A stretch of 64,000 nucleotides of DNA, from NCBI RefSeq assembly GCF_988243305.1, contig NZ_OZ547136.1; one strand, written 5' to 3'. The position numbers and the translations under genes are program-made. How positions within the stretch are numbered: position 1 is the first letter of the stretch; each line of letters opens with the position of its first letter. Shown here in pieces: positions 60,610 through 64,000 of the stretch. Under the pieces are notes generated by a model. That model had not been told where the DNA came from. It did no database searches and saw nothing but the letters and a program-made list of their open reading frames with translations.

Positions 60610-63600
60610 ATGGCGAATTTCTTTATTGATCGCCCCATTTTTGCCTGGGTGCTGGCAATCCTGTTGTGTCTGACAGGTACCCTGGCGATTTTTTCATTGC
60701 CCGTTGAACAATACCCCGATCTCGCGCCACCGAATGTGCGAGTGACCGCTAACTATCCCGGCGCATCGGCCCAGACGCTGGAAAACACCGTGACCCAGGT
60801 TATCGAGCAAAATATGACCGGCCTCGATAATCTGATGTATATGTCGTCTCAGAGCAGTGGCACCGGCCAGGCATCTGTCACTTTAAGTTTTAAAGCAGGC
60901 ACCGATCCGGACGAAGCCGTGCAGCAAGTACAAAACCAGCTGCAATCAGCCATGCGAAAGTTACCGCAGGCGGTGCAAAATCAGGGCGTGACGGTGCGTA
61001 AAACCGGCGATACCAACATTCTGACCATTGCCTTCGTCTCTACCGATGGTTCGATGGATAAACAGGATATTGCCGATTACGTTGCCAGTAATATTCAGGA
61101 TCCGTTAAGCCGCGTGAATGGCGTCGGGGATATCGATGCCTATGGTTCGCAATATTCCATGCGTATCTGGCTGGACCCGGCGAAACTCAACAGTTTCCAG
61201 ATGACGGCTAAAGATGTCACTGATGCCATTGAGTCACAGAACGCGCAGATTGCGGTTGGGCAACTTGGTGGTACACCTTCCGTCGATAAGCAGGCGCTCA
61301 ACGCCACCATTAACGCCCAGTCACTGCTGCAAACACCAGAACAGTTCCGCGATATCACCTTGCGGGTGAATCAGGACGGTTCAGAGGTAAGGCTGGGCGA
61401 TGTCGCCACCGTCGAAATGGGGGCGGAGAAATACGATTATCTTAGCCGCTTCAATGGTAAGCCAGCCTCCGGGCTGGGGGTAAAACTGGCCTCCGGCGCG
61501 AACGAAATGGCGACAGCGGAGCTGGTGCTCAATCGTCTCGACGAGCTGGCGCAGTATTTTCCACACGGACTGGAATACAAGGTGGCGTATGAAACCACCT
61601 CGTTTGTTAAAGCCTCCATTGAAGACGTGGTGAAAACGCTGCTGGAAGCTATCGCTCTGGTTTTCCTCGTTATGTATCTGTTCCTGCATAACTTCCGCGC
61701 CACGCTGATACCCACTATCGCCGTGCCGGTGGTGTTGATGGGAACCTTCTCCGTACTTTACGCCTTCGGTTACAGCGTCAACACCTTAACCATGTTCGCG
61801 ATGGTGCTGGCGATTGGTCTGCTGGTGGATGACGCCATCGTGGTGGTGGAAAACGTCGAACGTATTATGAGTGAGGAAGGACTCACTCCTCGCGAAGCCA
61901 CACGTAAATCGATGGGGCAGATCCAGGGGGCACTGGTCGGGATTGCGATGGTGCTTTCGGCGGTATTTGTACCAATGGCCTTCTTCGGCGGCACCACCGG
62001 TGCCATCTATCGCCAGTTCTCTATTACCATTGTTGCGGCGATGGTGCTGTCAGTACTGGTAGCGATGATCCTCACTCCGGCTCTGTGTGCCACGCTACTT
62101 AAGCCACTGAAAAAGGGTGAGCATCACGGGCAAAAAGGCTTTTTTGCCTGGTTTAACCAGATGTTTAACCGCAACGCCGAACGCTACGAAAAAGGGGTGG
62201 CGAAAATTCTCCACCGTAGCCTGCGCTGGATTGTGATTTATGTCCTGCTGCTTGGCGGCATGGTGTTCCTGTTCCTGCGTTTGCCGACGTCGTTCTTGCC
62301 ACTGGAAGACCGGGGCATGTTTACTACCTCGGTACAGTTGCCCAGCGGTTCAACCCAACAACAGACCCTGAAAGTCGTTGAGCAAATCGAGAAATACTAC
62401 TTCACCCATGAAAAAGACAACATCATGTCGGTGTTTGCCACTGTTGGTTCTGGCCCTGGGGGTAACGGGCAAAACGTGGCGAGAATGTTTATCCGCCTGA
62501 AAGACTGGAGCGAACGCGACAGTAAGACCGGCACCTCGTTTGCCATTATCGAGCGTGCAACGAAGGCGTTTAACAAGATTAAAGAAGCTCGTGTTATCGC
62601 CAGCAGCCCGCCAGCAATTAGCGGTCTTGGTAGTTCTGCAGGTTTTGATATGGAGTTGCAGGACCACGCTGGAGCGGGTCACGATGCGCTGATGGCAGCA
62701 CGTAACCAGTTGCTGGCGCTGGCGGCGGAAAACCCGGAGCTAACCCGTGTGCGCCATAACGGCCTCGACGACAGTCCGCAGTTGCAGATTGATATCGACC
62801 AGCGTAAAGCTCAGGCGCTGGGCGTTGCTATCGACGATATTAACGACACACTGCAAACCGCCTGGGGTTCGAGCTATGTGAATGACTTTATGGATCGCGG
62901 TCGCGTGAAGAAAGTCTATGTGCAGGCAGCTGCGCCATATCGCATGCTGCCAGATGACATCAATCTCTGGTATGTCCGAAATAAAGATGGCGGCATGGTG
63001 CCCTTCTCTGCTTTCGCGACCTCACGCTGGGAGACAGGCTCGCCGCGTCTGGAACGCTATAACGGTTATTCTGCGGTTGAGATTGTTGGGGAAGCCGCAC
63101 CGGGGGTCAGTACCGGTACGGCGATGGATATTATGGAATCGTTAGTGAAGCAGTTGCCAAACGGCTTTGGTCTGGAGTGGACGGCGATGTCGTATCAGGA
63201 GCGGCTTTCCGGCGCGCAGGCTCCGGCGCTGTACGCTATTTCCTTGCTGGTGGTATTCCTGTGTCTGGCGGCGCTGTATGAAAGCTGGTCGGTGCCGTTC
63301 TCGGTAATGCTGGTCGTGCCGCTGGGGGTTATCGGCGCGCTGCTGGCAACCTGGATGCGCGGGCTGGAAAACGACGTTTACTTCCAGGTGGGCCTGTTAA
63401 CGGTCATTGGTTTATCGGCGAAAAACGCCATCCTGATCGTCGAGTTTGCTAACGAGATGAACCAAAAAGGCCACGACCTGTTTGAAGCGACGCTCCACGC
63501 CTGCCGTCAGCGTTTACGCCCGATTCTGATGACCTCGCTGGCATTTATCTTCGGCGTATTGCCAATGGCAACCAGCACGGGTGCCGGTTCCGGTGGTCAG

Positions 63601-63723
63601 CATGCGGTGGGTACTGGCGTAATGGGCGGGATGATTTCGGCCACTATTCTGGCTATTTACTTCGTGCCGCTGTTCTTTGTGCTGGTGCGCCGCCGCTTCC
63701 CGCTAAAGCCGCGCCCGGAATAA
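60610..63723 (+). CDS. acrD: RND-family aminoglycoside/multidrug efflux pump
   Basis: 1037 aa [41 protein letters not shown]..., AcrB/AcrD architecture. Confidence 0.97.
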
Positions 63724-63730
63724 GCAATAA

Positions 63731-63762
63731 AAAAGGCGACATGCCAATGTGTCGCCTTTTTC
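63731..63762 (+). terminator. Intrinsic terminator of acrD
   Basis: ggcgac-atgccaatgt-gtcgcc hairpin followed by TTTTT. Confidence 0.75.
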
Positions 63763-63821
63763 AACTTTCCGATTAAGAACCTGCTCAGCAGGTTCTTGCT
63801 GTTTGTACTTTGTCTCAGGAA

Positions 63822-63881
63822 TTACTTACGAAGCATAACTTCGATAAAGTCTTTCCAGTTCCCCAGTTCACGTTCAATCAT
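63822..63881 (-). CDS. ypfM: 19-aa small protein
   Basis: Minus-strand ORF MIERELGNWKDFIEVMLRK*, recognised as YpfM next to acrD; below the ORF-track length cutoff. Confidence 0.8.
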   Translation of the reverse strand: MIERELGNWKDFIEVMLRK

Positions 63882-64000
63882 AACAACCTCTCTTATAATT
63901 ATGGGTATTCTACGGAAACAATATACCGTGGTGAAGCTAATTTACTCGATTGCTGCGATGACTACCTCCGGGGGACAAACCTTATGTAAATACTATGGTC

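Follow-up and report, generated by a model that had tools for sequence, protein, structure and literature searches.

The locus considered here raises two questions: whether a reading frame of only 19 codons, on the minus strand just beyond the 3' end of acrD, is a gene; and, if it is, what a peptide of this size would do. The window is the whole stretch of DNA that was analysed, 64,000 nucleotides of contig NZ_OZ547136.1 (assembly GCF_988243305.1). The frame is very probably a genuine gene, transcribed on its own and encoding a protein of 19 residues. It is not a new gene: it is the already known, annotated and mass-spectrometry-confirmed ypfM, and the biological question that it leaves is the role of a conserved, soluble peptide of 19 residues.

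Identity of the reading frame

Translation of the minus strand of the window from 63881 to 63822 gives exactly MIERELGNWKDFIEVMLRK and then a stop, the same peptide that an earlier note on this DNA had read from the interval. In the raw sequence, the ATG occupies 63881..63879 and the TAA 63824..63822. The frame converges with acrD, and 98 nt separate the two stop codons, which bears out the earlier placement about 100 bp downstream of acrD. The two genes are as follows.

60610..63723, plus strand: acrD, RND efflux permease, the convergent neighbour, given for context (1037-aa ORF; annotated on identical DNA)
63822..63881, minus strand: ypfM coding sequence, 19 codons plus TAA, product MIERELGNWKDFIEVMLRK (translation, RefSeq, NCBIfam and pN/pS)

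The frame was also said to escape a length-thresholded ORF track, and it does: there is no upstream in-frame start to lengthen it, and nothing is reported for it in an ORF listing with a 20-aa minimum. The bare ORF is no better than chance. The window holds 381 ATG-to-stop ORFs of 15-30 codons, so the existence of this one proves nothing and the case needs other evidence. A motif resembling a Shine-Dalgarno (SD) sequence (GGAG, GAGG or AGGA, 5-14 nt upstream) precedes 10 of the 381. The signal above chance comes from cross-species conservation, from annotation and from protein evidence.

The name YpfM, which the earlier note gave, agrees with the RefSeq annotation, with the protein family and with published top-down mass spectrometry. 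RefSeq places 'ypfM: protein YpfM' (WP_001386977.1) between acrD and yffB on DNA 100% identical to the window, so the annotated small protein that the note proposed to look for in reference genomes is present. Gene order in the identical record is acrD (plus), ypfM (minus), yffB (plus), dapE, ypfN and ypfH. A 351-nt stretch round the ORF occurs in 5424 of 5426 complete E. coli genomes, and all sampled records annotate ypfM; for the ORF plus its leader, identity is at least 99% in 4784 records and 95-99% in 641. Profile searches used a 22-residue translation, comprising YpfM and the three codons upstream. With this query, the NCBIfam equivalog NF033843 'small_YpfM' scores 58.8 bits (cut-off 33; E = 3.1e-16), and its profile positions 1-19 of 19 line up exactly with all 19 YpfM residues. 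Searches of Pfam, PADLOC and PDB sequences with the same query gave zero matches. Compared with YpfM of E. coli K-12 (NF033843; WP_001386977.1), the 19 residues, the position between acrD and yffB, the orientation and the promoter hexamers are the same, and no difference was found.

At the protein level, YpfM (19 aa) has been observed intact by top-down mass spectrometry, with 100% sequence coverage and in a formyl-Met form (PMC12529367). The same study detected it by DIA and PRM, and an earlier detection is that of Schmidt et al. (PMC12529367). On PRM quantitation, low-Mn2+ minimal medium was the only condition that gave YpfM in every replicate (PMC12529367).

Conservation of the coding frame

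The conservation scan was anchored on the neighbour YffB and was blind to ypfM, taking one genome per species and 1.5 kb on each side, for a total of 80 loci. Searching by YffB instead of by the peptide avoids circularity. In a best-window scan of all six frames, a YpfM-like 19-mer was found in 72 of the 80 loci, always upstream of yffB and on the opposite strand to it, with scores of 73-100 as against a second best of at most 30. The frame is exactly 19 codons long in 71 of these 72. Single genomes of Dickeya and '[Erwinia] mediterraneensis' also carry ypfM.

The alignment comprises 73 loci, that is, the 72 species loci and the E. coli reference (L001), in 55 distinct nucleotide versions. Across the 55, entropy per column averages 0.18, 0.18 and 0.63 at the first, second and third codon positions, and the three stop codons interchange (TAA 35, TGA 16, TAG 3). 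Amino-acid variation is concentrated at residue 4 (R/H/T/V) and residue 15 (V/G/D/A/Q/L/N). In the ypfM frame, the pooled pN/pS (Nei-Gojobori) comes to 0.134, versus 1.75 and 1.66 in the other sense frames, each of which carries stops in 54-55 of the 55 sequences. By these measures, the signature expected of a protein-coding sequence appears in the ypfM frame only, and purifying selection on YpfM as a protein across the Enterobacteriaceae is well supported.

Two long frames on the opposite strand were considered as coding candidates and rejected. The plus-strand ORF at 63810..63989 (59 aa, antisense frame 0) is interrupted by stops in 16 of the 55 sequences and has a pN/pS of 1.96. A second plus-strand frame (antisense frame 1) starts near 63796 and runs off the window end. 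Its pN/pS of 0.29 is lowish because its wobble positions are common to ypfM. Neither its start nor its end is conserved: measured from the first start codon, it is anywhere between 0 and 108 codons long. Both of these frames, antisense to ypfM and its promoter, look like shadow ORFs.

Two individual sequences depart from the general pattern. In Lelliottia nimipressuralis (L032, 1052-1111), the exception to the fixed length, the final codon has lost 1 nt (AAA to AA-) and with it the frame has lost its stop. The frame is thereby extended to 30 residues (MIERELGNWKDFIEDMLRNDLQEELQEHLI), which may be a genuine lengthening of the C-terminus or may reflect an error of sequencing. In an E. coli strain from pig faeces (L082, NZ_CP062815.1, 2547-3355), an IS1A element lies inside ypfM after about codon 9 and separates the 3' half of the gene from its promoter. 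This locus is still annotated with a 19-codon 'protein YpfM' (WP_195686594.1), which overlaps the 3' end of the IS1 transposase coding sequence and the end of the element; the annotation is probably a chimera. The insertion indicates that ypfM is dispensable in at least one natural isolate.

Promoter, transcript and terminator

The signals for transcription, translation and termination recognised at the locus are listed here.

63907..63935, minus strand: sigma-70-type promoter, -35 TTCACC at 63935..63930, 17-nt spacer, -10 TAGAAT at 63912..63907 (consensus scan)
63887..63894, minus strand: Shine-Dalgarno region AAGAGAGG; its core, GAGG (63890..63887), stands 5 nt ahead of the ATG
63775..63797, no strand assigned: perfect 10-bp inverted repeat AAGAACCTGC-TCA-GCAGGTTCTT, in the ypfM 3' UTR between the stop and the terminator, folding as a hairpin in the predicted mRNA
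63722..63763, no strand assigned: bidirectional intrinsic terminator, GGCGAC..GTCGCC stem set between an A-run and a T-run

Upstream of the coding sequence, the minus strand reads TAGAAT-ACCCATAATTATAAGAGAGGTTGTT-ATG. Both promoter hexamers are conserved in the cross-species alignment, and conservation of the GAGG columns over the 73 loci is 95% or higher. The hexamers TTCACC-17-TAGAAT are also those given for ypfM in a genomic-SELEX table for the RpoD holoenzyme (PMC3946193). From the position of the -10 hexamer, transcription is predicted to start near 63900-63902, leaving a 5' leader of about 19-21 nt. In a scan of 63600-64000, the ypfM promoter on the minus strand was the single match and no promoter-like site was found on the plus strand.

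Downstream, the terminator scan gives a minus-strand hairpin of 14 pairs at 63763..63728, with TTTTTTA behind it. Seen from the plus strand, the hairpin lies 5 nt past the acrD stop and is preceded by an A-run. As the same hairpin ends ypfM on one strand and adjoins the acrD stop on the other, it is read as a shared bidirectional terminator. Its stem and T-run are conserved across genera, and the hairpin matches the terminator stem of the Rfam STnc250 family. The spacer from the ypfM stop to the terminator aligns poorly across genera; it contains the inverted repeat at 63775..63797, which is unique in the window and which the plus-strand scan flags as a weak second terminator after acrD.

It is well supported that expression of ypfM involves: transcription of a monocistronic mRNA, about 177 nt in predicted length, from the sigma-70 promoter TTCACC-17-TAGAAT; translation of a 60-nt ORF behind a leader of roughly 20 nt, with a strong GAGG SD sequence 5 nt from the ATG; and, after a variable 3' UTR, termination at a strong intrinsic terminator that also ends convergent acrD. 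The predicted transcript runs from a start near 63900 to a U-tail near 63724, and its predicted fold, with two hairpins at the 3' end, is more stable than those of shuffled sequences (z = -4.2). On Northern blots, the Salmonella orthologue is a stable short mRNA of about 220 nt whose level depends on growth phase (Sittka et al., PMC2515195). This is longer than the length predicted from the E. coli promoter, and the predicted start site is accordingly provisional, with a second promoter as a possibility.

Coding and non-coding readings of the locus

The locus made its first appearance, under the name STnc250, in a catalogue of small RNA candidates, and an SD motif falls in front of 10 window ORFs of 15-30 codons by chance. 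Both facts could favour a reading in which the transcript is a purely non-coding small RNA (sRNA) and the ORF annotation spurious, or in which the ORF is a cis-acting leader peptide. The detection of the intact peptide by mass spectrometry (PMC12529367) argues against these readings, as do the low in-frame pN/pS, the fixed length and the interchanging stop codons. The alternative frames fare badly in the same alignment, the other sense frames being stopped in nearly every sequence, antisense frame 0 being both interrupted and high in pN/pS, and antisense frame 1 lacking a conserved start or end. For a leader peptide, a regulated gene should follow on the same strand, but no minus-strand gene lies downstream: a strong terminator stands about 60 nt past the stop, and the next gene, acrD, is convergent. 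A leader-peptide or attenuator ORF was rejected as a candidate on the same arrangement. This whole group of readings is refuted as far as sequence data allow, and its probability is negligible.

The small toxin of a type I toxin-antitoxin pair, which would be a hydrophobic membrane peptide paired with a cognate antisense RNA, was also considered and set aside: the peptide is hydrophilic, the scan of 63600-64000 gave no promoter-like site on the plus strand, and the antisense frames are not conserved as ORFs.

With the coding reading of ypfM retained, the locus serves as a clean positive control for the escape of real genes from length-thresholded ORF tracks. It also illustrates how a comparison that is anchored on synteny and blind to the ORF can validate so small a frame with nothing but sequence data. 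The features that validate it are: fixed length; interchanging stops; variation at third positions; and a conserved SD sequence, promoter and terminator.

Relation to STnc250 and constraint on the RNA

The Rfam family RF01409 (STnc250) matches the last codons of E. coli ypfM, the 3' UTR and the terminator over model positions 1-94 (E = 1.4e-5). The score of 37.4 bits lies below the gathering score of 42 because the spacer measures 37 nt in E. coli as compared with 13 nt in the model. STnc250 of Salmonella is the orthologous transcript, from which that of E. coli differs in its longer spacer with the extra perfect hairpin at 63775..63797. Despite the Rfam score, synteny and the shared ORF make the orthology clear. 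According to those who first described it, STnc250 includes the ypfM ORF (Sittka et al., PMC2515195), and the Rfam label 'sRNA' for STnc250 describes an mRNA fragment. When Hfq was co-immunoprecipitated from Salmonella, STnc250 cDNA reads were enriched 4-fold (24 versus 6), true sRNAs in the same table were enriched about 20-27-fold, and the authors treated the STnc250 transcript as an mRNA (PMC2515195).

Synonymous change in ypfM was compared with that in yffB by Fitch parsimony over loci L002-L081; the neighbour-joining tree used was derived from yffB together with a portion of dapE. Synonymous sites underwent a mean of 6.4 parsimony changes per site in ypfM versus 15.4 in yffB (Mann-Whitney p = 6e-5), so that synonymous change is about 2.4 times less frequent in ypfM. 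The slowest region is codons 5-10, GAA CTG GGG AAC TGG AAA (window 63851-63869), within which codons 5, 8 and 10 are almost frozen: GAA5 shows 0 changes, AAA10 shows 1 change, and AAT never occurs at N8. G7 is encoded by GGG in 50 of the 55 distinct sequences; GGG is a rare glycine codon in E. coli. The slowness of these sites relative to yffB points to some constraint on the RNA itself, besides that on the peptide. The constraint could stem from the initiation region, from codon bias or from a function at the RNA level.

As to the last of these, if the slow codons 5-10 marked a site conserved for pairing or for Hfq binding, ypfM would have gone unrecognised as a dual-function RNA, encoding a peptide and also acting as an Hfq-associated base-pairing regulator, or as a sponge or target of sRNAs, in the manner of SgrS/SgrT and AzuCR. 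Like SgrS/SgrT and AzuCR/AzuC, the ypfM transcript is short, encodes a small protein, shows some association with Hfq and has a Rho-independent terminator; it differs from them in having no reported base-pairing target and no conserved non-coding seed, and in its weak Hfq enrichment. The filing of the Salmonella orthologue in Rfam as 'STnc250 Hfq binding RNA', which the E. coli 3' part matches at full length, agrees with such a role, and so does the end of the transcript, a strong hairpin and U-tail typical of an Hfq-binding module; the E. coli match, however, falls short of the gathering score. The Hfq enrichment in Salmonella can likewise be cited in favour, but it is small beside that of true sRNAs in the same experiment (PMC2515195). 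The low synonymous change relative to yffB, strongest in codons 5-10, could equally reflect translation-initiation constraint, as all 19 codons are near the start codon. When 69 distinct sequences were folded with RNAalifold, 0 conserved pairs were found in the 5' UTR, the ORF and a 25-nt flank. The 3' UTR between the ypfM stop and the terminator is unconserved, and the literature that mentions ypfM reports no target. On balance, a second function of the transcript as a riboregulator appears unlikely.

Properties of the peptide and a possible mode of action

In the literature, ypfM is called 'of unknown function' (PMC12093975), and no function and no target are assigned to it in the literature that mentions it. 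The peptide contains 4 acidic and 4 basic residues, so that 8 of 19 are charged and the net charge is 0. Its longest uncharged run is 4 residues (LGNW). The mean Eisenberg hydrophobicity of -0.12 indicates that it is not a membrane helix. Treated as a helix, YpfM has a hydrophobic moment of 0.55, peaking at 100 degrees per residue, with I2, L6, W9, I13 and M16 spaced i+3/i+4 to form a hydrophobic face. When the E. coli sequence is shuffled, 2.7% of the shuffles reach this moment; for the cross-species consensus the figure is 1.4%. Amphipathicity is weaker in the Dickeya and [Erwinia] mediterraneensis variants, for which 5-7% of shuffles reach the moment, and the statistic for YpfM is a modest one. 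The G7-N8-W9-K10 core is invariant and positions 4 and 15 vary freely, a distribution that would be compatible with one conserved interaction face but is a fit and no proof of it.

Bacterial small proteins whose action has been characterised bind to a larger protein, as in AcrZ-AcrB and MgtS-MgtA. A chain of 19 residues is too short for a fold or catalysis of its own, which makes docking onto a larger protein the most likely way for YpfM to act. The resulting proposal, offered tentatively and as one possibility, is that YpfM would form a single amphipathic alpha-helix, soluble and with no net charge; that the hydrophobic face of this helix would dock onto a larger protein; and that docking would modulate that partner. 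YpfM resembles AcrZ-AcrB and MgtS-MgtA in that its gene is very short, stands alone and has a promoter and a terminator of its own, and in having a single predicted helix. The resemblance stops at the character of the helix: examples of the AcrZ and MgtS type are mostly transmembrane, whereas YpfM is hydrophilic and amphipathic and carries no net charge.

The neighbouring gene suggests one partner in particular. By analogy with AcrZ and AcrB, YpfM might be a dedicated accessory or modulator of the AcrD efflux pump. The AcrD C-terminus lies downstream of ypfM in 70 of the 72 ypfM-bearing species loci, and, upstream of yffB, 70 loci have both genes and 8 have neither; the two genes also have the bidirectional terminator in common. 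Adjacent genes can, however, be gained and lost together without any functional link, and the convergent arrangement of ypfM and acrD precludes co-transcription. In Dickeya undicola (L081), moreover, ypfM stands beside yffB, but a cold-shock-protein gene (cspE-like) and crcB, not acrD, are downstream. Nor does the peptide have the build of AcrZ: with so many charged residues and its low mean hydrophobicity, it can form no transmembrane helix of that kind, and an AcrZ-like transmembrane accessory peptide, for which a hydrophobic transmembrane helix would be diagnostic, was rejected as a candidate class. A dedicated role at AcrD is very unlikely. In gene order, acrD and ypfM mostly act as a single block, but the link between ypfM and yffB is the more constant of the two.

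The loci that have neither gene within 1.5 kb upstream of yffB are L060, L062, L068 and L072-L076. They belong to three Enterobacteriaceae, Yersinia nurmii, two Erwinia and two Lonsdalea.

The ypfM-yffB intergenic region

The window covers only the smaller part of the region between ypfM and yffB. At its edge, a minus-strand block at about 63981-63999, CCATAGTATTTACA, is at least 80% conserved across genera. Within this intergenic region, the block stands some 100-118 nt ahead of the ypfM start codon, and it could be a site for a regulator or part of the divergent yffB promoter. In Salmonella, a MarA ChIP peak has been reported in the ypfM/yffB intergenic region (PMC10268841).
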